This document shows positions 2,217 to 60,860 of a stretch of DNA of 64,000 bases, in pieces (position 1 is the first letter of the stretch; the number at the start of each line of letters is the position of its first letter). This stretch comes from Candidatus Magasanikiibacteriota bacterium (lineage in GTDB: Bacteria > Patescibacteriota > Patescibacteriia > Magasanikbacterales > GWA2-37-8): the NCBI GenBank assembly GCA_036744835.1, contig DAIOHD010000001.1, positions 335,860 to 399,859 of the forward strand, written 5' to 3'. Under the pieces are notes generated by a model. It was not told where the DNA came from and did not search any database. It was given only the letters and a program-made list of their open reading frames with translations. The translations under genes and the position numbers were made by a program.

Positions 2217-4445
2217 ATGTTTAGTTGGCAGAAAATAATTTATAAAAAGATAGTGCCCGGTTTATATTCGATAGCCGGGCCTTTTGTTATTGCTTATTGT
2301 TGGAATTGGTATCATTTGACCTCTGTGAATCGTCAAACAGAACTTTGTTGGTTAACTTTGCTTTATGCCGGTTTAATTTTCTTTGTTTTTTTTCTTTTCA
2401 AAGGATTGTTTAGATTTTTAATTTCAAAGTTTAAATGGCATAGTTTTTGGTTAGATGAATTTATTATTTATTTGGATGAACTTTTTTTCTTGAGCTCTTT
2501 GATTTTTTTTGTTTTATTTTCTCAGTCTGAATTTTTAGGCCTAACTTACGTTCTATCTTTATTTTTTTTGATTTTTCTTCGTCTGGATAATATTTTAGGA
2601 AAACACAAAGAAGATTTACTTTGGCAAAAAGTAAATAGAAAAGTTTTTCTTTTGGCCGGTTTTATTTTTTTGATTACTGGGATTTTTCAGTTTATTGCTT
2701 ATACTTATTATATATTTGATAGTAATGCAAAATATCACAGTATTGTGTTGTTTCGTACTTTTTCTTTGACAGTTTTTTGGCTTGGGGGCTTCTCTCTTTG
2801 TAGTCTATTTTATTTTTATTTTAAAAAAATTCGCCAATTGTTTCTTTTTATTTGGTTAATCATGTTTGGGATGGCTTTGTTTTTGGATATGATAAATACG
2901 GGGATAGTCGGAAATTCCGGGCTTTATTTGAGCCCGGTAATATTAAATCACTTGAGTTTTACAGGGTTAAAAATATTTTTCTTCCCAGTAGCAACTGTTG
3001 TGGTTGTTTATTTTTTTCTGCTGGTCTTATCTTTTTTGATTTTTCAAAGTGTGTTAAAGGCCCATAAAGAAACCACCAGAAGACATTGGTTATTTTATAA
3101 TTTTGCTTTATTGTCTATATCTATCGCGGCTATATTTTCCGTAAGCTCTTTTTGGAACACACCACAAGCTACAACTTTTAAAAATTTTACGGCAAATAAA
3201 TTGGTAAAAAATATTATTATTTCTCCGGAGATTTGGCAAAAATTGGAAAAATTCGGTTTAATTTATAATTTGGAATCTTTTTCCGTAATGCGTAAAGTTC
3301 AGCCAAAAGAAAAAAAATTAAATTTAAAAATTGAAAAACCCAATATCATTTTGATTTATTTGGAATCTTTTTCCGCGCGCTTAACCGGAGTATACAATGA
3401 GGAATATATTGAAGTTACTCCAAATTTAAATGATTTTGCCGGTCATAAAAATACCACTGTATTTTCCAAAGTCTATAATGCTTCTACTCCTACAATTACC
3501 GGCTTGATTTCCTCATTATGTTCTTTTTTACCTCCGACGGGCCATCAAGAAATCGAACAGGACAAGTTGCTCAAAAGACAGTATTTGACTTGTTTACCGG
3601 TTATTTTGAAAGAAAACGGATATGAAAGTGCGACTTTTGTAACTGCGGTAGCCAAAGAGTTTGCCAATAAAAATACTATTTTGGAAAGTATGGGTATCGA
3701 GAGTGTTTATGGTGTTGATGAACTTAAAAAAGAAATCAAAGAAGACCCTAAGTCTTGGGGATATTCCGACCATCAACTTTTTCCATTTATTTTTGATTTA
3801 GCAAAAAATAAAAAAAATCCTTTTTTCTTGGGTTATGCGACGGTTGATACACATCCTCCTTTTGATTTACCTCAAGATTTAGTTAAATTCAAAGAAGGAG
3901 AAAATGTTGTTTTAAATTCTATTCACACCACTGATAGTGCCTTTGGTCTTTTTTGGAAAGAATTTCAAAAGAGCTCTTTGGCGCAAAATACAATTTTAGT
4001 AGTTATGGCCGATCACGCAATTTTTCCTACTGCGTTAAATAAAAAATATTTTCCAAATTTTGGAGGCCAGACAACTTTTTATGATGAATTGTTTATGGCG
4101 GTGTATATTCCGGAAAATCAATTACCAAAAAGAAATGAAATTTACGGTAGTGGTATTGATTTAGCACCGACTGTTTTACATTTATTAAATTTTTCATCAC
4201 CAAATTCTTTTGAAGGTTATTCTTTGTTAGGGGCTCGTAAAAAATATCCTAACCTTATTGGGATGCATGAATTTGGTCTTTATTTAAACCAAGAAACATT
4301 GGATAAAAAGCGACAAGAAGAATTTGTTATGCCAAATGATGTTGATTGTGAAGAAAAAATATCCGGTGATCTTTTAACAATGTGTGAACTTAAACAATAT
4401 TATGATTGGAAAAGACAGATGATGTTACAAGGTCGTTTGTGGTAA
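2217..4445 (+). CDS. Polytopic membrane protein with C-terminal sulfatase / LTA-synthase (LtaS)-like alkaline-phosphatase-superfamily domain
   Basis: N-terminal ~300 aa is multi-TM. C-terminal has NIILIYLESFSARL...TPTITGL...DTHPPFD, typical of LtaS / phosphoglycerol-transferase sulfatase domains. Confidence 0.75.
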   Translation: MFSWQKIIYKKIVPGLYSIAGPFVIAYCWNWYHLTSVNRQTELCWLTLLYAGLIFFVFFLFKGLFRFLISKFKWHSFWLDEFIIYLDELFFLSSLIFFVLFSQSEFLGLTYVLSLFFLIFLRLDNILGKHKEDLLWQKVNRKVFLLAGFIFLITGIFQFIAYTYYIFDSNAKYHSIVLFRTFSLTVFWLGGFSLCSLFYFYFKKIRQLFLFIWLIMFGMALFLDMINTGIVGNSGLYLSPVILNHLSFTGLKIFFFPVATVVVVYFFLLVLSFLIFQSVLKAHKETTRRHWLFYNFALLSISIAAIFSVSSFWNTPQATTFKNFTANKLVKNIIISPEIWQKLEKFGLIYNLESFSVMRKVQPKEKKLNLKIEKPNIILIYLESFSARLTGVYNEEYIEVTPNLNDFAGHKNTTVFSKVYNASTPTITGLISSLCSFLPPTGHQEIEQDKLLKRQYLTCLPVILKENGYESATFVTAVAKEFANKNTILESMGIESVYGVDELKKEIKEDPKSWGYSDHQLFPFIFDLAKNKKNPFFLGYATVDTHPPFDLPQDLVKFKEGENVVLNSIHTTDSAFGLFWKEFQKSSLAQNTILVVMADHAIFPTALNKKYFPNFGGQTTFYDELFMAVYIPENQLPKRNEIYGSGIDLAPTVLHLLNFSSPNSFEGYSLLGARKKYPNLIGMHEFGLYLNQETLDKKRQEEFVMPNDVDCEEKISGDLLTMCELKQYYDWKRQMMLQGRLW

Positions 4446-7822: not shown

Positions 7823-7850
7823 ATCGTCCGAAATGGCGATTTTTTAAATC
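7823..7850 (+). terminator. Rho-independent terminator after rlmN
   Basis: aaaatcg-tccgaaatgg-cgatttttt hairpin plus T-tract. Confidence 0.5.
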
Positions 7851-7886
7851 TTTCAATCTTTAAATCTTTGCAATTTTTGTAATTAA

Positions 7887-7915
7887 AAAATATCCGCTTT
7901 CGCGGATATTTTTTA
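7887..7915. terminator. Bidirectional intrinsic terminator between convergent rlmN and the sugar transferase gene
   Basis: atatccgc-tttc-gcggatat perfect hairpin, flanked by A-run on the left and T-run on the right. Confidence 0.6.
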
Positions 7916-28409: not shown

Positions 28410-28525
28410 ATTTTTTAACTCAACGATAGATTCGCCGAATGAATTTTGGCGAATTTTTTAATTTATGGTAAAATAAAGATAGTCAAATATTCAATCTTTA
28501 AACCAATAGAGCCAATTTTATTTTT

Positions 28526-50705: not shown

Positions 50706-50736
50706 ATTTTCAGACAATTTAATAATTAGTTTTATC

Positions 50737-50845
50737 CAGAGTGCAGTTTGTTTTTTCGCCTTGGCGAAGAATCTAGGGATCTAGCCCGAACACTGCCGAC
50801 AACCGTTGAAAGATGACTCTTTCAAAAAGGTGCCAATTCTAGCCT
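50737..50845 (+). promoter_or_regulatory. Candidate SAM-binding riboswitch aptamer (S-box-like, non-canonical order) in the metK leader
   Basis: Contains AGGGAUC...GCCCGAA...GCCGACAACC, GUUGAAAGAUGAC and GGUGCCAAUUC. These strongly resemble SAM-I/SAM-IV core segments (GGCAACC, GGUGCYAAUUCC), and the element is upstream of metK. The segment order differs from the T. tengcongensis SAM-I I remember, so the class is uncertain. Confidence 0.5.
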
Positions 50846-50870
50846 TAAACTCCGCTTAGCGGGGCGTAGG

Positions 50871-50940
50871 GGAAAGATATCAAGTCGATTTTTTATTTCT
50901 TAAATAAAAAAATATCTTTCCTCAAAAGGGAAAGTTTTTT
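50871..50940 (+). terminator. Riboswitch expression platform: antiterminator (ggaaagatat...atatctttcc) competing with an intrinsic terminator (ctttcc-tcaaaa-ggaaag-tttttt)
   Basis: 10-bp antiterminator stem 50871-80/50912-21. The terminator stem 50916-21/50929-34 reuses ctttcc and is followed by T6 at 50935-40. Confidence 0.6.
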
Positions 50941-50946
50941 ATTGAC

Positions 50947-51037
50947 TGTCATTGCGAGGAATGTAATGACGAAGCAATCCCACAAAGTTCAGAAAGCAGT
51001 GAGATTGCCACGTCGTCTGCGACTCCTCGCAATGACA
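50947..51037. repeat. 91-bp stem-loop: perfect 14-bp inverted repeat tgtcattgcgagga / tcctcgcaatgaca around a 63-nt partly self-complementary spacer
   Basis: Read directly; lies between the leader terminator and the metK ATG. Confidence 0.7.
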
Positions 51038-51082
51038 CCTTACTAATCTTTAAATCTTTAAATTTTTAAATCTTTAAATCTT

Positions 51083-52201
51083 ATGTTCAAAACTTGTGAA
51101 TCAGTTTGTGCCGGACATCCGGACAAAATTTGTGATCAAATTAGCGATGCAATACTTGACGCATGTTTGCGTGAAGACAGTGAAGCCAGAGTAGCCATAG
51201 AATGTCTCATCAAAGACAAACATCTTATCTTGGCCGGTGAGATAACTAGCTCTGCTAATCCCGATTTTATTGCTATTGCCAAAAACACTTTAGAAAAAAT
51301 CGGTTATACAAAAGAGGAAGTAGAAAAATTTCAAATTCAAAATCTTATCGGCAAACAATCTTCCCATATCGCGCAAGGAGTAGATACGGGCGGAGCCGGC
51401 GATCAAGGGATGATGTATGGTTATGCTACGGATGAAACTCCGGAGATGATGCCTCTGCCTAGTTTACTCTCGCATCGTTTATGTCAAAAACTCAACGCCT
51501 TGATGATAGAAGACGCTACTTGTCCGCTCAAACCAGACGGTAAAGCGCAAGTAACTATACTATATGAAAATGATAAACCACTCATGGCCGATACGGTCAT
51601 AGTTTCTGTTCAGCACACACCGGAAATCACTTCTCCTGATTTGGAAAAATATGTTTGGGAAAAAGTCATCCAACCTATTTGTGCTCCTTGGCTCAAAATA
51701 GGTCCTATCATCAATCCGCATTTCAAAGATAAACAAAATACAGAATTTACCAAAATCTTCATCAACCCAACCGGACGTTTTGAAATCGGCGGACCTGAAG
51801 GTGATTGCGGTTTGACCGGTCGTAAAATCGCTGTAGATACTTATGGTGGAATTGGTCGTATCGGCGGGGGAGCATTCTCAGGCAAAGATCCGAGCAAAGT
51901 AGACCGTAGCGCCGCTTATATGGCCCGTTATCTGGCAAAAAAGCTAGTTTCTCTAGGTTTTGCTGGCGAGGTAGAAGTTCGTCTAGCTTATGCTATCGGG
52001 GTAGCGCAACCGGTTGATGTCAGTGTAGATATTATCCGTGGTGACAAAACTCGCCAAAGCGAAGCGGTAAAATATTTACGAGAAAACTTTGATCTCACTC
52101 CATCAGGAATCATAGAATTTTTGCAATTGAAACAACCAATTTATTCCGCAACTTCCGCTTACGGACATTTTGGGAGAAACGGATTTAGTTGGGAAAAATA
52201 A
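51083..52201 (+). CDS. metK: S-adenosylmethionine synthetase
   Basis: CESVCAGHPDKICDQISDAILDACL...GGGAFSGKDPSKVDRSAAY canonical MetK motifs. Confidence 0.92.
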   Translation: MFKTCESVCAGHPDKICDQISDAILDACLREDSEARVAIECLIKDKHLILAGEITSSANPDFIAIAKNTLEKIGYTKEEVEKFQIQNLIGKQSSHIAQGVDTGGAGDQGMMYGYATDETPEMMPLPSLLSHRLCQKLNALMIEDATCPLKPDGKAQVTILYENDKPLMADTVIVSVQHTPEITSPDLEKYVWEKVIQPICAPWLKIGPIINPHFKDKQNTEFTKIFINPTGRFEIGGPEGDCGLTGRKIAVDTYGGIGRIGGGAFSGKDPSKVDRSAAYMARYLAKKLVSLGFAGEVEVRLAYAIGVAQPVDVSVDIIRGDKTRQSEAVKYLRENFDLTPSGIIEFLQLKQPIYSATSAYGHFGRNGFSWEK

Positions 52202-52606: not shown

Positions 52607-52621
52607 TAAAACCTTTTTATA

Positions 52622-52648
52622 AGCGGAGCTTCGGCTCCGTTTTTTTGT
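52622..52648 (+). terminator. Intrinsic terminator
   Basis: gcggagc-ttcg-gctccgt-tttttttg. Confidence 0.8.
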
Positions 52649-52705
52649 TGAATTTTTTACAGAAAAAGGGTAAAATAAAGACGATAAATAAATAATTATT
52701 GTTTT

Positions 52706-53629
52706 ATGCCAGAAATTAGTTTACAAGATGCGGGATTTTGCCCCCACGGAAATTATCCCAATCAATGCGATGCTTGTCGTTTTGAATATTTGCATGAAGT
52801 CAAAGAACAAGCACAAAACAATTGCGAAAAAACTATAGAAGAATTTGGTTTAAAAAACAGCCCAACTTTTGCACAGGCGTATGAAAAAATGAAAAATATG
52901 AACCATGGACCTTATCATCAGGAAGGTGGTCCAGATGTTCACGTGTCTTTGGTGTTATGGGAGATGGATAAACTGATAGGGCAAGAAGAAAAAAATTTGA
53001 CTGATGAAGAAAAAAAGATATTACGTCTGAGCGCCTTACTGCATGATATTGGTAAACCAGAGAGCTCGTTTGTTGACCTGCCGACCAAAAAACACATGGA
53101 ATTATTTGAGAGTTCCAAAACAATGTTAAGTCCCGGAGCTTTGGACAAAGCGCAAAAAATAAGAACTGAAATATTAGACAGTATGATGCCGGGAAAAAGA
53201 TCAAAGCCCAAAGAAATGGATTTGGTTCGCACACCTGAGTTTCAAAACAAGGTAGAAGAGATGTTGCAAAATGAAGATGCAGAAGTAAAACGTGCGTTTG
53301 TGCCTAGATTTTTTGATCATGAAACTTTTAGCGCCAATTTATTGGATAAAATCACACAGGAAATAGATTTGAAATTAACACCTGGCCAGATAGAAACTTT
53401 GAAAAAAATTATCGGCAACCACATGGCTTTGTATGCCGATACAACTGGGTTGGAAAAATTTATTGCCAAAGCACTTACCAAAGATGGTCAGTTTGATGAA
53501 AATACTTGGAAAATGCTCAAGATGCAAGTTCGTTCCGATTCCCGTGGGACGTACTCTTATGGCGAACCCAATCGCGATGCAGGGGTAGATAAATTGATAG
53601 AGGGGATTGAAAAAACAAAGATAAAATAA
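52706..53629 (+). CDS. HD-domain phosphohydrolase family protein
   Basis: HGPYHQEGGPDVHVSLVL...LSALLHDIGKP (H...HD metal-binding motif); N-terminal Cys pair (CPHGNYPNQCDAC). Confidence 0.6.
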   Translation: MPEISLQDAGFCPHGNYPNQCDACRFEYLHEVKEQAQNNCEKTIEEFGLKNSPTFAQAYEKMKNMNHGPYHQEGGPDVHVSLVLWEMDKLIGQEEKNLTDEEKKILRLSALLHDIGKPESSFVDLPTKKHMELFESSKTMLSPGALDKAQKIRTEILDSMMPGKRSKPKEMDLVRTPEFQNKVEEMLQNEDAEVKRAFVPRFFDHETFSANLLDKITQEIDLKLTPGQIETLKKIIGNHMALYADTTGLEKFIAKALTKDGQFDENTWKMLKMQVRSDSRGTYSYGEPNRDAGVDKLIEGIEKTKIK

Positions 53630-54136: not shown

Positions 54137-54254
54137 CATAAAATAAATATTGAATATCCCCTCCTTTTCAAGGAGGGGGGGAGGGGTGGTTAATATCCAA
54201 TATTCTATCTAATCTTTAAATCTTTCAATCTTGTAATCTTGCAATCAAAAAATT

Positions 54255-54503
54255 ATGTCTTTTTTCGTCTATATTGTAAAGTGTTCTGACAAAACTCTTT
54301 ACACCGGCATCACCACTGACTTGAAACGTCGTATTGATGAACATAATTCTTCGGATTTGGGCGCCAAATACACCCGCGCCCGCCGTCCGGTCAAACTCGT
54401 CTGGTCAAAAAAGTTCAAAACCAGATCTTCCGCCGCACGGATGGAGTATAAAATCAAACAGTTGAGTAGAGAGGAAAAAATCGTTTTGATAAAATCTAAA
54501 TAA
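54255..54503 (+). CDS. GIY-YIG nuclease-family protein (UPF0213/YhbQ-like)
   Basis: FFVYIVKCSDKTLYTGITTDLKRRIDEHN...RRP.KLVW GIY-YIG core; 82 aa. Confidence 0.8.
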   Translation: MSFFVYIVKCSDKTLYTGITTDLKRRIDEHNSSDLGAKYTRARRPVKLVWSKKFKTRSSAARMEYKIKQLSREEKIVLIKSK

Positions 54504-54505
54504 CT

Positions 54506-54596
54506 AAACACTTCGCCCTCTAGTTGAAGTGTTTTTATTTGCTTTGTTTTAGCAAAAATTATAGTTCTTGAAGTTTTGGGTGAAAGGGAGTAAAAT
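54506..54596 (+). promoter_or_regulatory. Repeated module copy A: terminator hairpin (aaacacttc...gaagtgttt) + palindromic ttgctttgttttagcaaaa + promoter TTGAAG-17-TAAAAT
   Basis: ~85% identical to copy B at 57272-57362; promoter part also matches 56384-56412. Confidence 0.65.
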
Positions 54597-54626
54597 ATAG
54601 AACATTATAAACAAAAAATAGTTAAC

Positions 54627-55316
54627 ATGTATATTTTTCTCGATGAAAGCGGACAATTTCATAAAAATCATAAAGACGATTATTTTGTGATTGGTTCTTT
54701 TACGATAGGTGACACAAAAAGAACGGCTAAACGTTTTAGATCTTGGTGTCGTACCAGATTTCCTAAAAAAATGTGTAAACAAGCGGAAATTAAATATTCT
54801 GATTCCGGTATATCCGATGAGCTTCGATTGAGAACCTTAAAATTCATTAGTTCTTTGGATGTAAGAGTGCGTTATAGTTTTATGAAAAAAGAAAATATTC
54901 CTGATGAATATAAAACTAAAGATACTTTAGAAAGTGGATTGCTCTATACTGCTATAGTCGGTGAGACCCTTGAATTATATTTACCAACTGATGATAATTT
55001 ATTACATGTTTTTTGTGATCAGCGTAGACTGAAAGGTGTTAGTAAAAAAGAATTTACGGAAAAAATTATACCTCATCTTTTGCCAAATTTATCAAAAGGC
55101 GGACAAATTAAAATTGAAATGGTTGATTCTAAAGAATACCCAAACATTCAAATCGCCGATTGGATTGTAGGTGGAATTGCCTCTTATTTAAATAAAAAAA
55201 ATTTGGGCGATGAAGTATTTACTATATTGAAAAATAATATTATTAGTGAAGGTAAAGAAATGTTTAAAGATTATTGGGATAATAAATATAACAAAAAACC
55301 CAATCTTATAGATTAG
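54627..55316 (+). CDS. DUF3800-family protein
   Basis: MYIFLDESGQF... N-terminal signature of DUF3800, 229 aa. Confidence 0.65.
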   Translation: MYIFLDESGQFHKNHKDDYFVIGSFTIGDTKRTAKRFRSWCRTRFPKKMCKQAEIKYSDSGISDELRLRTLKFISSLDVRVRYSFMKKENIPDEYKTKDTLESGLLYTAIVGETLELYLPTDDNLLHVFCDQRRLKGVSKKEFTEKIIPHLLPNLSKGGQIKIEMVDSKEYPNIQIADWIVGGIASYLNKKNLGDEVFTILKNNIISEGKEMFKDYWDNKYNKKPNLID

Positions 55317-55327
55317 GCATTTTGTTG

Positions 55328-55403
55328 AAGCAGCGTCTCCCAACGCGGAATTCCACAGCTGAAGCCTCAGGTTCCCTGAGGGAGCACCGTGGCGCACTGA
55401 AAG
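55328..55403. other. GC-rich structured segment between convergent genes
   Basis: gcgtctcccaacgcggaattccacagctgaagcctcaggttccctgagggagcaccgtggcgcac, containing cctcag-gttcc-ctgagg hairpin. Not a complete tRNA. Confidence 0.4.
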
Positions 55404-55523
55404 CTATTATTGCATACTTCAATATTAATATACCACAAAATCAGTCTTTAGTCAATATTTATCCACAACACAAATTCCGCCAAATAAGCGGAATTTTTTG
55501 TATGTTTACGATTTTGTTTTTAT

Positions 55524-56174
55524 TTAGAAGTTATTGGTGTATTCCAATAGTAAACCCATCATAACTTTTTTTACTGCTGGATGAGAATTGTACATTATTT
55601 CTTTTTTTATCTCTTTATTACGAAAAAAAGATATGATTTCTTTTTCAATCTCCAATTTATGCCAAGAAGGCATTTTGCTGAGTGTTTCTGATAAGTCTTC
55701 AGTTATAGATAATATAGCAGGGATATTTTCACTACTTCCCAAAGCAGAAAAAAGATCATAACCACCGCGTAAAGTTTTTGGCGCAAAATGGCTAGGCACG
55801 AAAGTTCCATATTTATTAAAACCCAACAAATATCCTTTTTCTTTATTTCCAAAACAAAGAGAGGCTTCGATATTTCCATCTTGAAAAAAATGACCGATGA
55901 AAGATTCTTTGGAAAGTGGTTCTCGGTCACGTCTTTGCATCGCTTCAGAATACCATGTATAAACTTCGTCAGCAGAAACATCGTCCAATATTTTATCTGT
56001 ATTAATTAATTCAAAATCATGACCGTTAAATCTCTCTTTAATAAGTAAATCTTCAGTCACTTCCAGTGTTTTATCCATCTCCTCTATTTTTTTATTATAT
56101 TCTTCCACGCCCATTTCTATTTCTTCTTTAATTTGTTTTGGGTCGGGTTTATTCCAATTATTTTCATTGTACAT
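55524..56174 (-). CDS. Hypothetical cytoplasmic protein
   Basis: 216 aa, no motif recognised; acidic N-terminus. Confidence 0.45.
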   Translation of the reverse strand: MYNENNWNKPDPKQIKEEIEMGVEEYNKKIEEMDKTLEVTEDLLIKERFNGHDFELINTDKILDDVSADEVYTWYSEAMQRRDREPLSKESFIGHFFQDGNIEASLCFGNKEKGYLLGFNKYGTFVPSHFAPKTLRGGYDLFSALGSSENIPAILSITEDLSETLSKMPSWHKLEIEKEIISFFRNKEIKKEIMYNSHPAVKKVMMGLLLEYTNNF

Positions 56175-56273
56175 ATATTTTTTTTAATTTTACTTTTTTC
56201 TAGAATATTATAAATACGAACAAAAGTCAATTTAAGTTAGATTATTGTAAAAGCTAAAATAAGCCGGTTTTGT

Positions 56274-56320
56274 CACCCCCGCGAATCCGCCTTCGCCAGT
56301 TGGCGAATGGCGGGAGGGGA
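56274..56320. repeat. GC-rich nested-hairpin element (E4)
   Basis: CACCCCCGCGAAT ccgcc [ttcgcc-agtt-ggcgaa] t ggcgg GAGGGGA. Confidence 0.55.
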
Positions 56321-56383
56321 TCCAGTGTCTAATTTCTGAAATTTTTTCAATTTCTGCAATCTTTATAATTTTTATTTTGGTTG

Positions 56384-56412
56384 TTGAATTTTTTAGGGAA
56401 AAGTAGTAAAAT
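56384..56412 (+). promoter_or_regulatory. Repeated promoter copy C (TTGAAT-17-TAAAAT)
   Basis: ttgaattttttagggaaaagtagtaaaat. Confidence 0.6.
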
Positions 56413-56418
56413 TTCATC

Positions 56419-57252
56419 ATGAAAAAACTTTATATTTCCATCATATTTCTACTATTTCTATCCGGTTGTACTTCTGAGATTGCGCAAAATAGTAAAGTAG
56501 AAATCAAAACCGAAAATCAAACCGTCACTGCGGTTGTTTCTTCTACCACAAATATAAAAATAAACGATGATTTTGATGATATAAAAACAGAAATTTTTGT
56601 TACTACCAATACCCCTACAAATTCAGAAAAAACTTTTTTGGTGACACGAGTTATTGACGGCGACACTATCGAGATAGAAGGCGGGCAAAAAGTGCGCTAT
56701 ATCGGTATAGACACTCCGGAAACTGTAGATCCGCGCAAACCCGTGCAATGTTTTGGCAAAGAAGCTTCCGCCAAAAACAAAGAATTGGTGGAAGGCAAAA
56801 AAGTGCGTTTGGAAAAAGATATCACAGACACTGATAAATACGGGCGCTTGTTGCGATACGTTTACATCGGCGATATTTTTGTAAATCTGGAATTGGTCAA
56901 ACAAGGTTACGCCTCCTCATATTCTTATCCGCCGGATATCAAATTTCAAAATGTATTTTTGCAAGCCCAGCAAGAAGCGCAAGCCAAGGATCTAGGTTTT
57001 TGGTCAGCTTGTGAAGAAAATAATATCCCCGAAATATCTACCCCTGCCATAAATACTACAACAAACAACAACAGCCCGACGGATTGTAAAATAAAAGGAA
57101 ATATCAGTTCAAAAGAAGAAAAAATTTACCATCTTATAGGGTGTGATAGTTACGATCTTACAAAAATAGATGAGGCTAGGGGAGAGAGATGGTTTTGCAC
57201 GGAAGAGGAAGCGGTGATGGCGGGGTGGAGAAAAGCATTAAATTGTCCGTAA
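56419..57252 (+). CDS. Secreted lipoprotein thermonuclease (SNase-like) with C-terminal CxxxC/YHxxGC domain
   Basis: Lipobox FLLFLSGCTS; VTRVIDGDTIEIEGGQKVRYIGIDTPE...GRLLRYVY SNase core; C-terminal KIYHLIGCDSYDLTK...FCTEEEAVMAGWRKA. Confidence 0.85.
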   Translation: MKKLYISIIFLLFLSGCTSEIAQNSKVEIKTENQTVTAVVSSTTNIKINDDFDDIKTEIFVTTNTPTNSEKTFLVTRVIDGDTIEIEGGQKVRYIGIDTPETVDPRKPVQCFGKEASAKNKELVEGKKVRLEKDITDTDKYGRLLRYVYIGDIFVNLELVKQGYASSYSYPPDIKFQNVFLQAQQEAQAKDLGFWSACEENNIPEISTPAINTTTNNNSPTDCKIKGNISSKEEKIYHLIGCDSYDLTKIDEARGERWFCTEEEAVMAGWRKALNCP

Positions 57253-57271
57253 AAATAATATTCTGTATTTT

Positions 57272-57362
57272 AAACACTTCACCCTAGGTTGAAGTGTTTT
57301 ATTTTTGCTTTATTTTAGCAAAAATTTGGTTTATTGAATTTTTTAGGGAAAAGGAGTAAAAT
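57272..57362 (+). promoter_or_regulatory. Repeated module copy B: terminator hairpin + palindrome + promoter TTGAAT-17-TAAAAT
   Basis: aaacacttc-accctaggtt-gaagtgttttatttttgctttattttagcaaaaatt...ttgaattttttagggaaaaggagtaaaat. Confidence 0.65.
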
Positions 57363-57397
57363 AAAGGCATTAAAAACAATATAAACTTTTCTATAAT

Positions 57398-59113
57398 ATG
57401 GAAAATATTTTTGAAAAATTAGTGGCTTTGCTCAAAAAAGATGAGCGGTTAAAATCTCAAGAAAATACCTTGTTAAAAAACAAAGCTCAAGAATTGGCTC
57501 GAGGCAATGATTTGGAATTAATCAAACTTTTGTTATCTGATAAGACTATTAAGCAAAACTTTTTTTATAAAGTAGATGAAGCTTTGATTTTTGATAAAGA
57601 AAAGTTTATTCGTTTTATTTCCAATAAACAATTTTTGCCGGATTCTTACACTGCTTTCAAAAATAAAATTGGTTTGACTGTTGGTGATGAGTATTTGAGC
57701 GAAAATAAAGATGTTGTTTTGGTTTGGCCGTATAAAGATTGTATTTTGGAAGGTGGAATGACCAAAGAAGATCAAAAAAGAGATGAGATATTTTACAATG
57801 AAACACTTGCACCGGATCAAATAACAAAATTATTAGATCCAAAGGTTTTTACTAATTTCAAAAGATTTGATGCAAAAGGCGAACACAAACTTGAGGGTTT
57901 TAAACGGGATGAAAAAGGGAATATAAAAGATAATTTAATTATTAAAGGCAACAATTTACTTGCCCTTGCTTCGCTTAAAAAAGAATTTGCCGGAAAAGTA
58001 AAATTGATTTACATTGATCCGCCATATAATACAGGTTCAAATAGTTTTGGATATAATGACAGTTTTAATCATTCAGCATGGATGGTTTTTATGAGAAATA
58101 GATTAGAAATTGCAAAAGATTTATTAAATGATGACGGAAGTATTTATATACAATTGGATTACAATGAAGCTCATTATGGCAAAATTTTGATGGATGAAAT
58201 TTTTGGCCGAAATAATTTTCAGCGTGAGATTATTTGGAAATTAGGCGGTTTAGCTGGTTATAAAAGCTTAGCAAATAATTTTATTCGAGGACATGAGACT
58301 ATACTTTTTTATACAAAATCATCAAATTTTAATTTTAATAAAATTTATTTGCCTTATAATGAAGGACAGCTAAAAAGATTTTCCAGCGTTGATGAAGAAG
58401 GCAGAAAATATAAAATTATCACAAAAGATAAAAAATTATATTTAGACACAGCCAAAGGTGTTCCTATTTCAGATTTATGGGATGATATCGCCAGTTTTCA
58501 AACCGTTGTTAATTCGCCAGAAATTATGGATTTTGATGGACAAAAACCTGAAAAATTATTACAACGTATCATTGAATCTTCTAGTAATAAAGGAGATTTG
58601 GTTTTAGATTATCATGCAGGTACGGGTACAACATTGGCTGTAGCTCATAAATTAAATCGTCAATATATCGGGGTTGAACAAATGGAATACATTCACGATT
58701 TACCAGAATCTCGTTTGAAGCGAGTGGTTACAGGAGAACAAGGGGGAATTTCAAAAGTAGTTAATTGGAAAGGTGGAGGAGAGTTTGTTTATTTGGAACT
58801 TGCGGAATTAAATCAAAAATGGGTAAAAGAAGTTAGAGAAGCAAAAACTGAAAAAGAATTATCTAAAATTTGGGAAGAAATGAAAGAAACTGCCTTTTTG
58901 AATCATAAAATAAGTCCAGAAAGTATTGATGCAAACATAAAAGAATTTGCGGATTTGAGTTTAGAAAACAAGAAGAAATTTTTGATTGAATGTTTGGATA
59001 AAAATCAGCTTTATGTAAATTTGAGTGAGATAGGGGATAAGGAGAATAAAATAAGTGAAGGAGATAAAAGGTTAAATAATGAATTTTATCAAAAAAGATA
59101 TGAAATTAAATAA
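57398..59113 (+). CDS. Type III restriction-modification Mod subunit (beta-class N6-adenine DNA methyltransferase)
   Basis: KLIYIDPPYNTGSNSFGYNDSF (motif IV DPPY) precedes DYHAGTGTTLAVAHKLNRQYIGVEQ (motif I), i.e. beta-class order. GKILMDEIFGRNNFQREIIW is typical of type III Mod. Confidence 0.85.
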   Translation: MENIFEKLVALLKKDERLKSQENTLLKNKAQELARGNDLELIKLLLSDKTIKQNFFYKVDEALIFDKEKFIRFISNKQFLPDSYTAFKNKIGLTVGDEYLSENKDVVLVWPYKDCILEGGMTKEDQKRDEIFYNETLAPDQITKLLDPKVFTNFKRFDAKGEHKLEGFKRDEKGNIKDNLIIKGNNLLALASLKKEFAGKVKLIYIDPPYNTGSNSFGYNDSFNHSAWMVFMRNRLEIAKDLLNDDGSIYIQLDYNEAHYGKILMDEIFGRNNFQREIIWKLGGLAGYKSLANNFIRGHETILFYTKSSNFNFNKIYLPYNEGQLKRFSSVDEEGRKYKIITKDKKLYLDTAKGVPISDLWDDIASFQTVVNSPEIMDFDGQKPEKLLQRIIESSSNKGDLVLDYHAGTGTTLAVAHKLNRQYIGVEQMEYIHDLPESRLKRVVTGEQGGISKVVNWKGGGEFVYLELAELNQKWVKEVREAKTEKELSKIWEEMKETAFLNHKISPESIDANIKEFADLSLENKKKFLIECLDKNQLYVNLSEIGDKENKISEGDKRLNNEFYQKRYEIK

Positions 59114-60860
59114 AGTCGGAATAAAGAATTTTCGTTCTATAGTAAATATTAATCTAGTTATCGAAGGAGATATAACTACTTTGGTTGGGGCAAACGAACA
59201 CGGAAAATCTAATATTTTAGCGGCCATATCATTTCTTAATCCAACATATGTTTTTGATATTAAAAAAGACAAAAGAATTGATGGTAATGCAATAAAATAT
59301 TGTCCATCAATAAAATTTTCTCTTACCCTTAGTTTAGCCGAACGTAAACAAATTCAAGAATTAATTCAAAGCAAATATCCGCCCGTTATAATTAAAAATG
59401 AAGATGGAGTTTCTTCCGAGGGCAAACCAGAAAAAGAAATAAAATTAAAAGACATACCAGAAAACATAGATTATGAGCGTTTTGTTGGTGAAGAAGATGA
59501 TAAATCTTATTATAGAATAAATACCAATGATGAAGATGTTTTAACAGAAGTTTATAAATTTATTTCTCAAGAATTTGGTACAAAAATAATTTATTTTGAT
59601 GAGTTTAATGACAGGTTAGAATCTATAATTTCAAAAGTCGATATTGAAGACACGGAACGAAATCCCATAATACAGGGTCTTTTAAAAGTTTGTGATTTAG
59701 AAGGTAAGGAAAAGCAAATTTTTACTGATGATATAGGCATGAGACAGCTTTTAGATAAAGCACCAGAAAAAATTACTAAAGCTGTTAAAGAAGCTTGGTA
59801 TCAAGGGTTGCAAGATGATATAAATATAAAAATAATTCGGGATTCAAAAGGTGAAAATTTACTTATTGATATTGAAGATAAAAATACCTATATCGATTTT
59901 AAAGCAAGAAGTCGTGGTTTTAAATGGTTTTTTTCTTTTTTTCTTAAATATCGTGCTTATCACGACGGAGAATTAAAAAATTCAATTTTTCTTATAGATG
60001 AGCCGGGATTGTTTTTACATCCAAAAGGCCAAAAAGATTTACTTCAATATTTAGAAAAATTAGGTAAATCAAACCAAATAATTTATTCTACACATTCGCC
60101 GTTCATGATTAACCGACTTAAAGAAAAAAGAGTCCGGGTTGTTGAAAAAAAACAAAAAGAAGGCACGACCATTAATACAAAAGGATTCACCGCAAATTGG
60201 CGACACATGCGAACTTCTTTAGGGATGGTACTTTCAGATAGTTTTTATTTTGCAGATAAAACATTAATAGTAGAAGGTCCGGAAGATAAAATTTATATAT
60301 TAGCTTTGTTACAATATTTTATAAAAAAAGAAAATTTAGATGTTGATGTAAACATGCTGTCTATTATGGATTCTGGGGGAGCAGCAAATTTACCTGCGAT
60401 GGCCAGAATCGTAAAGGATGAGGAACGGCCATTAATTGTTTTAATTGATAGCGACAGTATTTCAGTACTAAATAAATTAAAAAAATATATTAACGATAAA
60501 GAATGTAAAGAAATAAAGGAATTTAATTCTAATGCTGCAACAATCCAAGATTTACTTCCCAAAAAATATTATGAAAAAGCTGTTAATAATTATATCCAAC
60601 GTCTTAAAAATGACGGTCTTATAGTTTTATCAGAGGGGTGTAAAGAAGATTATAAAATTAAAGAAAAATTTAAAATAGATAAAGAAGTTGAAGATTTTGT
60701 GAAGACAAATTTTAACGAAGAAAGTATTTCTAAGGTAGGCATAGCCAGAGAGTTCGAAGAATTGTTAAATACAAAAGCATTTAATAGTACTGAAAATGAT
60801 TTTGAGAATTCTAAAAAATTAATAGAATGGGTAATCAAAACTTTAGAATTAAAAGTCTAA
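59079..60860 (+). CDS. OLD-family nuclease (N-terminal ABC/AAA ATPase + C-terminal TOPRIM)
   Basis: KVGIKNFRSI...TTLVGANEHGKSNILAAISFL (Walker A/P-loop of OLD/AAA_15-21), FLIDEPGLFLHP (Walker B/D-loop region), and C-terminal TLIVEGPEDKIYILALL (TOPRIM VEG-x2-D). Overlaps the Mod stop by 35 nt; alternative start ATG 59100. Confidence 0.8.
   Translation: MNFIKKDMKLNKVGIKNFRSIVNINLVIEGDITTLVGANEHGKSNILAAISFLNPTYVFDIKKDKRIDGNAIKYCPSIKFSLTLSLAERKQIQELIQSKYPPVIIKNEDGVSSEGKPEKEIKLKDIPENIDYERFVGEEDDKSYYRINTNDEDVLTEVYKFISQEFGTKIIYFDEFNDRLESIISKVDIEDTERNPIIQGLLKVCDLEGKEKQIFTDDIGMRQLLDKAPEKITKAVKEAWYQGLQDDINIKIIRDSKGENLLIDIEDKNTYIDFKARSRGFKWFFSFFLKYRAYHDGELKNSIFLIDEPGLFLHPKGQKDLLQYLEKLGKSNQIIYSTHSPFMINRLKEKRVRVVEKKQKEGTTINTKGFTANWRHMRTSLGMVLSDSFYFADKTLIVEGPEDKIYILALLQYFIKKENLDVDVNMLSIMDSGGAANLPAMARIVKDEERPLIVLIDSDSISVLNKLKKYINDKECKEIKEFNSNAATIQDLLPKKYYEKAVNNYIQRLKNDGLIVLSEGCKEDYKIKEKFKIDKEVEDFVKTNFNEESISKVGIAREFEELLNTKAFNSTENDFENSKKLIEWVIKTLELKV

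Follow-up and report, generated by a model that had tools for sequence, protein, structure and literature searches.

Repeated hairpin-palindrome-promoter modules in a variable accessory island of a Candidatus Magasanikiibacteriota genome

We analysed a 64,000-nt stretch of a Candidatus Magasanikiibacteriota genome (assembly GCA_036744835.1, contig DAIOHD010000001.1, positions 335,860 to 399,859), referred to here as the window, and identified in its accessory-gene island a short repeated module that joins a hairpin, a palindrome and a promoter-like sequence. The module forms a family with members in related genomes, stands before unrelated genes, and lies at or beside differences in gene content between genomes. 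We favour the reading, at a probability of about 0.6, that the modules are cassettes made up of a terminator, an AT-rich block and a promoter, which would insulate accessory genes and provide homology in portable form, as a chromosomal analogue of the promoter-early stem-loops (PeSLs) of T4-like phages. In this reading the modules would play a causal role in recombination within the island.

Module anatomy and copies in the source genome

We identified two complete modules, c2 (54506-54596) and c4 (57272-57362), spaced 2766 nt apart. A global alignment of the two has 77 identical columns out of 93 (82.8%), compared with a mean of 48.5% (standard deviation 3.6) in a control of 2000 random 91-mer pairs from the window. 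Within 91 bp, both copies contain a T-tailed hairpin, then the palindrome TTTGCT-N7-AGCAAA, then a TTGAAK-N17-TAAAAT promoter sequence. An initial annotation, made from the letters of the DNA, had described two similar modules of about 90 bp with approximately 85% identity and with the hairpin, palindrome and TTGAA(T/G)-17-TAAAAT anatomy at these same coordinates, and our analysis agrees with it on the coordinates and the anatomy. The parts of the modules in the window are as follows.

52621-52642, plus strand: predicted intrinsic terminator GCGGAGCTTCGGCTCCG with a T-run, unrelated to the module hairpin, just 5' of c1 (-13.9 kcal/mol, z -4.4)
52648-52676, plus strand: c1, predicted promoter TTGAAT-17-TAAAAT, 30 nt 5' of an HD-domain protein gene (52706-53629)
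54506-54534, plus strand: c2 hairpin AAACACTTCgccctctagttGAAGTGTTT, with arms AAACACTTC...GAAGTGTTT, followed by TTTTTATTT; predicted terminator of a GIY-YIG gene
54538-54556, no strand: c2 palindrome TTTGCT-N7-AGCAAA, an AT-rich block 5' of the -35
54568-54596, plus strand: c2, predicted promoter TTGAAG-17-TAAAAT, 30 nt 5' of a DUF3800 gene
56374-56412, plus strand: c3, partial module (promoter only), with homology from 56374 and TTGAAT-17-TAAAAT at 56384-56412
57272-57299, plus strand: c4 hairpin of 28 nt, followed by TATTTTT; predicted terminator of a nuclease gene
57304-57322, no strand: c4 palindrome TTTGCT-N7-AGCAAA
57334-57362, plus strand: c4, predicted promoter TTGAAT-17-TAAAAT, 35 nt 5' of the type III Mod gene

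The promoter-only copy c3, which the initial annotation had also proposed, differs from the c4 promoter at one of 29 bases (56384-56412). Further copies were sought and found in the source genome as well as in relatives. A repeat finder and a pattern search identified c1, a fourth promoter copy that had previously been missed and that occupies the same place in the closest relative, L006 (contigs are denoted here by L numbers). The exact pattern TTGAA-N18-TAAAAT has five matches in the window; four are the plus-strand copies c1-c4, which fall within 4.8 kb (52.6-57.4 kb). The hairpin pattern has no match in 100 shuffles.

Another hairpin copy is present on the source contig where it runs past the window end (L001, position 1 of which is window 54211). 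This third hairpin, with half a palindrome, lies about 1.5 kb beyond the window end (L001 11306-11331) and is inverted relative to c2 and c4. It sits between two plus-strand genes, encoding a 23S-rRNA-IVP family protein and a HAD hydrolase. Its T-run is on the minus strand only, and it is no obvious terminator for either neighbouring gene. Together with c4 it forms a pair of inverted partial modules that bracket an 8.2-kb restriction-modification/OLD block.

The hairpin is predicted to be an intrinsic terminator and TTGAAK-17-TAAAAT a sigma-70-type promoter. Folded on the gene strand, c2 reaches -14 kcal/mol (z -2.7) and the c4 module -19.3 kcal/mol (z -4.6), and terminator prediction classes c4 as terminator-like. 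The hairpins carry T-tails (TTTTTATTT in c2, TTTTATTTTT in c4) and lie 3 nt past the GIY-YIG stop codon and 20 nt past the nuclease-gene stop codon, respectively. In c2 and c4 we thus find the stem-loop, the U-rich tail, the gene 3' end position and the shared strand of rho-independent terminators; the inverted third copy departs from this pattern on the gene strand. The terminator-then-promoter appearance noted in the initial annotation is accordingly consistent with T-tailed folds and a sigma-70-type consensus.

Across 14 distinct promoter copies, the most conserved positions are the -35 TTGAA, the -10 RGTAAAAT with its upstream purines, and the first transcribed bases A-A/T-AG. Similarity in the promoter spacer falls with divergence. 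Several copies have an imperfect palindrome, and c1 and c3 have none. We interpret it as AT-rich sequence upstream of the promoter, perhaps an UP element or operator, and not as an essential site. Outside the island, at 28446-28474, the sequence TTGGCGAATTTTTTAATTTATGGTAAAATaaaga is related to the promoter family in diverged form; it is located 5' of a 116-amino-acid open reading frame (ORF) and a ClpB-like gene.

Modules and gene content in related genomes

We scanned the strict promoter pattern against 185,579 species genomes and obtained matches in three related assemblies, each with one island contig: L003 (two copies), L006 (two copies) and L005 (one copy). A metagenome scan with the promoter pattern contributed L015 as well as L012, which duplicates L005. 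Homologues of GIY-YIG and DUF3800 led to L016, L017/L018, L021-L023, L025, L027-L031 and L032. The carriers of the module family are a group of related, Magasanikbacteria-like Patescibacteria. The family is small, lineage-specific, low-copy, and largely confined to one variable accessory/defence island beside a conserved GIY-YIG gene.

The full module or a recognisable derivative heads different genes in different genomes: DUF3800 in the window and L006, Mod in the window, a gene located after DUF3800 and its associated RNA in L003, RhuM-Fic in L005, and RadC in L015/L016. A diverged copy heads HsdM in the more distant L017. L021 has a promoter copy alone ahead of GIY-YIG, and L016 has one ahead of a 23S-rRNA-IVP gene. 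Single genes flanked by two hairpin copies encode a 146-amino-acid P-loop protein (L006), Bro-N (L023) and RhuM-Fic (L005). In the window, L006 and L017/L018 the hairpin comes immediately after the GIY-YIG stop codon, and this site is probably its original home.

Promoter-pattern matches in Clostridia-type contigs and metagenome copies (L002, L004, L007, L008, L010, L011, L013 and L014) have neither hairpin nor palindrome and were set aside as chance. The hairpin-plus-palindrome and promoter patterns have no match in viral contigs, and blastn of 54200-57420 against 50,697 phage records gave no match. A phage or prophage origin was rejected on these grounds.

Comparison of the window with L006 places several edges of gene-content difference in or beside modules. 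The two genomes are approximately 99% identical over 51.1-54.4 kb. At the hairpin, which is a single copy in the window, L006 has two copies that enclose 805 extra nt, comprising a promoter-like stretch and the P-loop gene. The left junction of this insertion, GAAGTGTTTTTAG|TTCCCCTC..., is found again 5' of Bro-N in L023, and the sequence to its right recurs 5' of Bro-N in L005 as well. The c2 promoter, leader and first codons (54573-54632) are 100% identical in L006, though the coding sequence that follows has been replaced: DUF3800 and the small RNA (54633-55409) have about 55-65% identity. From the RNA promoter through a 216-amino-acid ORF the two genomes are again about 98% identical. Next, c3 and the nuclease gene (~56330-57235) are absent from L006, which retains the last ~35 nt of the nuclease gene, the c4 hairpin and half of the palindrome; divergence resumes inside the c4 palindrome. 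The region is a mosaic from several events, not one clean crossover.

The initial annotation had suggested a recombination-prone island, and the edges in or next to modules support this for several gene-level differences. It had also associated one pattern, no more copies and relatives with the same genes without the repeats, with locally duplicated regulatory DNA; we find instead that relatives carry the repeats and differ in gene content.

Explanations for the repeated modules

In the favoured explanation, the hairpin would end the transcript of the upstream gene and the promoter would restart transcription for the next one. The 30-90 bp of sequence shared among modules would be homology that moves with them. 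Copies could recombine with one another or with a copy on incoming DNA, so that gene units would be inserted, deleted or swapped, and the exchanged units would carry working start and stop signals along with them.

The closest known match is the PeSL of T4-like phages, an element of ~100 bp that consists of a stem-loop terminator, an AT-rich block and a sigma-70 promoter (Arbiol et al., 2010, PMC2839356; Comeau et al., 2014, PMC4122927). PeSLs concentrate in hyperplastic regions 5' of ORFans, and some sister phages have genes between two PeSLs where the other phage has one, for which recombination between copies has been proposed (PMC2839356; PMC4122927). By analogy, the module would work like a PeSL, although it is not a member of the phage family. 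Both elements place a stem-loop and a sigma-70-like promoter within ~100 bp (91 bp in c2 and c4), with an AT-rich block (TTTGCTTTRTTTTAGCAAAAATT in the module) between hairpin and -35. Both are repeated in a plastic region 5' of accessory genes, here DUF3800, the nuclease gene, Mod, RhuM-Fic and RadC. The 805-nt difference with L006 resembles the two-copies-versus-one arrangement, and the replacement of DUF3800 and its RNA starts right after the c2 promoter and leader, although not every edge is at a module.

The differences from PeSLs concern setting and form. The module resides in a bacterial chromosome whose flanking genes are cellular (among them DnaB, RecR, MetK, MurJ and FtsW), and there are three to four copies per genome in one island compared with ~50 per phage. 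The module stem-loop is always 5' of the AT-rich block and promoter, whereas its position varies in PeSLs, and the stem is AT-rich instead of polyG/polyC.

The genomes of Patescibacteria are tiny and contain few recognisable mobile elements, but the defence/accessory islands in them are highly variable. Portable terminator-promoter cassettes would be a simple, enzyme-free route to add, drop and swap defence genes, and genes gained in this way would come pre-wired for expression and insulated from their neighbours. A mechanism known until now from T4-like phages alone would thereby be extended to a cellular chromosome. In practice, the modules could serve as sequence tags for variable islands in uncultured lineages and as a source of candidate promoters and terminators for organisms in which genetic tools are lacking.

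Several observations weigh against this explanation. Viable gene-level insertions and deletions must end between genes, where terminators and promoters lie anyway, so co-location of edges and modules is partly expected. The events observed amount to a handful. The left edge of the nuclease-gene difference is a GC-rich REP-like element rather than a module, and divergence to the left of c2 begins within the GIY-YIG 3' end. The c2 loop is unlike both L006 hairpins, so one clean crossover does not account for the 805-nt difference. The DUF3800 and RNA unit moves between genomes without the module. Terminator and promoter activities are read from folding and consensus, and a consensus promoter scan gave 70 matches versus 56 +/- 6 in shuffles, a slight enrichment in AT-rich DNA. 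Compensatory double changes occur at 0 of 13 pairs of the hairpin stem; the structure is thus supported by the palindrome itself and not by covariation, and stem conservation could simply reflect recent common descent. Motif scanning of the source genome spans ~67 kb, the window plus ~3 kb of overlapping contig.

The one-sided substitutions in the stem are mostly G.U on the gene strand. One hairpin of L016, h1 (CTCC/GAGG), was considered as a compensatory change and dropped, as its two substitutions fall on neighbouring pairs.

The most serious alternative, possible though distinctly less probable than the explanation above, is that the modules are passive paralogous regulatory DNA. A terminator/promoter pair would have been duplicated locally and would take no causal part in gene turnover, with edges coinciding because viable insertions and deletions end between genes. 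Few, island-confined copies, a hairpin without covariation and breakpoints away from modules all fit this account. So do the diverged promoter relative at 28446-28474 and the GAGTAAAAT -10 context in otherwise unrelated L025 promoters, from which part of the similarity may be lineage promoter style. Local duplication is harder to reconcile with the presence of the same 30-90 bp signals at unrelated genes across genomes (Bro-N, RhuM-Fic, P-loop ATPase, RadC, DUF3800 and Mod), since the module, or the genes around it, must have moved. A gene flanked by two copies in one genome where a sister genome has one is moreover a classic signature of repeat-mediated insertion or deletion.

Conservation could also come from binding rather than recombination, if the palindrome and conserved spacer bound one regulator that co-controls the island genes. 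The 19-bp palindrome is centred ~20-25 bp 5' of the -35 in c2, c4, L003 and L016, the 3' half of the spacer (GAAAGNGAG) is kept across copies, and the far end of the island has a gene of the winged-helix (HTH_24) type. We nonetheless consider a shared operator or regulon unlikely. The palindrome is absent at two of the four window promoters, its symmetry is disrupted by TTTTCT in L005 and by AGTAAA in L006 and L016, and in L005 it lies ~87 nt from the promoter. Spacer similarity decays with divergence (L017), as common descent predicts. A regulon would be compatible with portable terminator-promoter cassettes rather than exclusive of them.

Dedicated site-specific recombination, with the hairpin as a minimal attC-like or dif-like (11-6-11) site or as the end of a miniature transposable element, is the least credible reading. 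Six of the 13 hairpin copies are exactly 28 nt and can be read as 11-6-11 with the centre CCTAGG, direct copies flank single inserted genes, the inverted copy closes the 8.2-kb restriction-modification block, and the conserved GIY-YIG nuclease gene adjoins the founding copy. However, neither the 64-kb window nor the 3-kb L001 tail yielded an integrase, a Xer-type recombinase, a transposase or any further kind of site-specific recombinase. Copies differ in their central or loop length (6 to 8 nt), the genes between copies have their own promoter-like sites, and the T-tails suit a terminator. We also judge it very doubtful that the hairpin (28-30 nt) is a minimal structure-specific recombination site cut or nicked by the 82-amino-acid GIY-YIG protein or by an unlinked enzyme. 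If true, this would amount to integrase-free, integron-like capture and excision of single-gene defence cassettes in ultra-small Patescibacteria.

The comparison with integrons gives a similar picture. The attC sites of integrons measure 57-141 nt and have paired R''/L'' and L'/R' boxes, and integron cassettes are mostly promoterless and in one orientation. Like integrons, the island has arrays of unrelated accessory genes in units bounded by imperfect palindromic repeats. In contrast to integrons, no ORF of the window or L001 tail has an IntI integrase domain, the hairpin is a single stem of 28-30 nt, far below the attC size range and without a second pair of R/L boxes, and the units have promoter-like sites of their own, with genes and RNA on both strands. 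An attC identity was rejected on these grounds, and cassettes in the integron sense, to which the initial annotation had likened the architecture, are not supported. The broader idea of cassette-like boundaries holds for several edges at modules; other edges lie elsewhere, as at a REP-like element. Predicted start and stop signals flank genes, but calling each gene an insulated unit oversimplifies: the 2.7-kb c2-c4 interval holds four transcription units on both strands: DUF3800 (plus), the RNA (minus), the 216-amino-acid ORF (minus) and the nuclease gene (plus).

The dif modules of Acinetobacter plasmids (pdif, Xer-mediated) resemble the hairpin in that 28-bp 11-6-11 near-palindromes flank accessory genes and are sometimes inverted. 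The dif core is a fixed 11-6-11 with an invariant 6-bp centre, whereas the hairpin centre is 6, 7 or 8 nt. We saw no Xer gene nearby, and the module hairpins are T-tailed and lie exactly at gene ends, like terminators. We know of no sequence similarity between the hairpin and dif sites. Given the variable loop length and the lack of a recombinase, an Xer/dif-type identity was rejected.

Correia and REP-type repeats, and the 'minimal mobile elements' of Neisseria, are short intergenic repeats with promoter or terminator activity and variable genes swapped through homologous recombination between conserved flanks, respectively. Correia/REP-type repeats are high-copy, are dispersed genome-wide, and have terminal inverted repeats and target duplications. 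The module family differs in being low-copy and local; reading the aligned copies and flanks, with no systematic search run, we saw no terminal inverted repeats or target-site duplications.

The DUF3800 unit and other features of the island

The window is AT-rich (G+C 29-40%). Its ordinary cellular genes include those for MurB, MurJ, FtsW, MraZ/MraW, LepA, RecJ, RecR, DnaB, ThyX, MetK and many glycosyltransferases. The names borne by close homologues indicate Candidatus Magasanikbacteria, a group of Patescibacteria. Accessory genes start at 52.6 kb and continue to the window end. The genes and RNA of this accessory region are as follows.

52706-53629, plus strand: HD-domain protein gene behind c1, with a small lipoprotein-like ORF after it
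54255-54503, plus strand: gene for the 82-amino-acid GIY-YIG protein, at the left edge of the variable island, with the hairpin 3' of its stop codon
54627-55316, plus strand: DUF3800 gene behind c2
55326-55421, minus strand: DUF3800-V small RNA (Rfam RF02964), convergent with DUF3800; 73.2 bits versus a gathering score of 37.4
55427-55455, minus strand: predicted small-RNA promoter TTGACT-17-TATATT with TG, at the right edge of the swapped DUF3800 and RNA unit
55524-56174, minus strand: 216-amino-acid ORF with no family match
56419-57252, plus strand: gene for a staphylococcal-nuclease-type lipoprotein, behind c3 and absent from L006
57398-63547, plus strand: operon of type III Mod, OLD-family ATPase/nuclease and type III Res, behind c4, with ~29% G+C

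DUF3800 and its RNA appear to be a 0.84-kb mobile unit in their own right that landed under c2 in this island. Between the window and L006 the two were replaced together, as a whole, with both ~55-65% identical and the flanks 98-100%. Homologues of the window DUF3800 allele (75-79% amino-acid identity) occur in unrelated neighbourhoods of other Magasanikbacteria. In L025 and L032 the conserved nucleotide block corresponds to window 54627-55467 and takes in the DUF3800 coding sequence, the convergent RNA and the RNA promoter; in L027 it stops earlier, at window 55338. The unit occupies 1114-2037 of L006, 1062-1900 of L025 and 2198-3038 of L032. No hairpin, palindrome or promoter module is present at the DUF3800 and RNA sites in L025, L027-L031 or L032, and we therefore rejected the possibility that the module travels with DUF3800.

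DUF3800 is RNase-H2-like and is a partner of type VII retrons (PMC7736814), and DUF3800-associated RNAs of unknown function have been described (Weinberg et al., PMC5737381). The predicted terminator of the small RNA (55318-55298) overlaps the 3' end of the DUF3800 ORF. Judged from the arrangement of these signals, transcription of DUF3800 probably continues across the RNA gene, antisense to it, up to a plus-strand terminator at 55472-55496.

The small-RNA promoter is a candidate second portable promoter module. This minus-strand promoter (TTGACTAAAGACTGATTTTGTGGTATATT or close variants) is also found behind NYN-domain genes, at L015 1298-1430 / L016 2662-2793, L016 1620-1760 and L025 520-625. 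The predicted short RNAs with terminators at these sites have no counterpart among Rfam families (search of L015 at E<=0.01). L016 and L025 share one type, and these RNAs are candidate new NYN-associated small RNAs. Two 200-nt direct repeats of L025 (789-988 and 1966-2165, 96% identical) flank DUF3800 and its RNA, and each contains a ~62-codon zinc-ribbon-like ORF (CxxC...CPKC) and a terminator. A promoter pair is also repeated in L025 at 980-1017 and 4078-4115. Repeated intergenic module architecture thus also exists with a different sequence family.

The nuclease protein has a lipoprotein signal (…LSGC) at its start and a 'sunset' domain (NCBIfam NF051437) at its end. The c3 -10 hexamer ends 6 nt before the nuclease-gene ATG (56407-56421), which predicts a leaderless mRNA. 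Module-driven genes lack a Shine-Dalgarno sequence, but we did not retain this as a distinguishing feature, as most window genes are without one. In the restriction-modification operon, Mod and Res are separated by the gene for the OLD-family ATPase/TOPRIM nuclease (59079-60860), and the reading frames overlap. The G+C content of this block, ~29%, is the lowest of the window, compared with 33-40% nearby, which suggests acquisition. On the source contig, genes for a SEC-C-motif protein and a small HTH protein lie 3' of the operon.

GC-rich REP-like palindromic elements (such as gtcacccccgcgaatccgcc...ggcgggaggggatcc and ttcccctc...ttaggggagagtctc) are scattered in the island. We identified them at window 56262-56330, 50940-51035 and 54155-54190, at L005 5360-5560, and at the starts of the L006 and L023 inserts. 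They coincide with some rearrangement edges located away from modules. REP-like palindromes and 8-nt tandem repeats also lie between a SAM-I riboswitch-like element and the metK start codon. The riboswitch-like element (50729-50883; 21 bits versus a gathering score of 44, with large insertions) is ~200 nt 5' of metK (51083-52201). Tandem 8-nt repeats (TAAATCTT and variants) at 51035-51088 and 54209-54254 reach the metK and GIY-YIG start codons, respectively. Other intergenic regions have different short tandem motifs (GTAGTCTG..., AAATTAAAA...), and tandem repeats also occur at ~7850-7890. A 15.9-kb Logan contig breaks at one of these tandem repeats.

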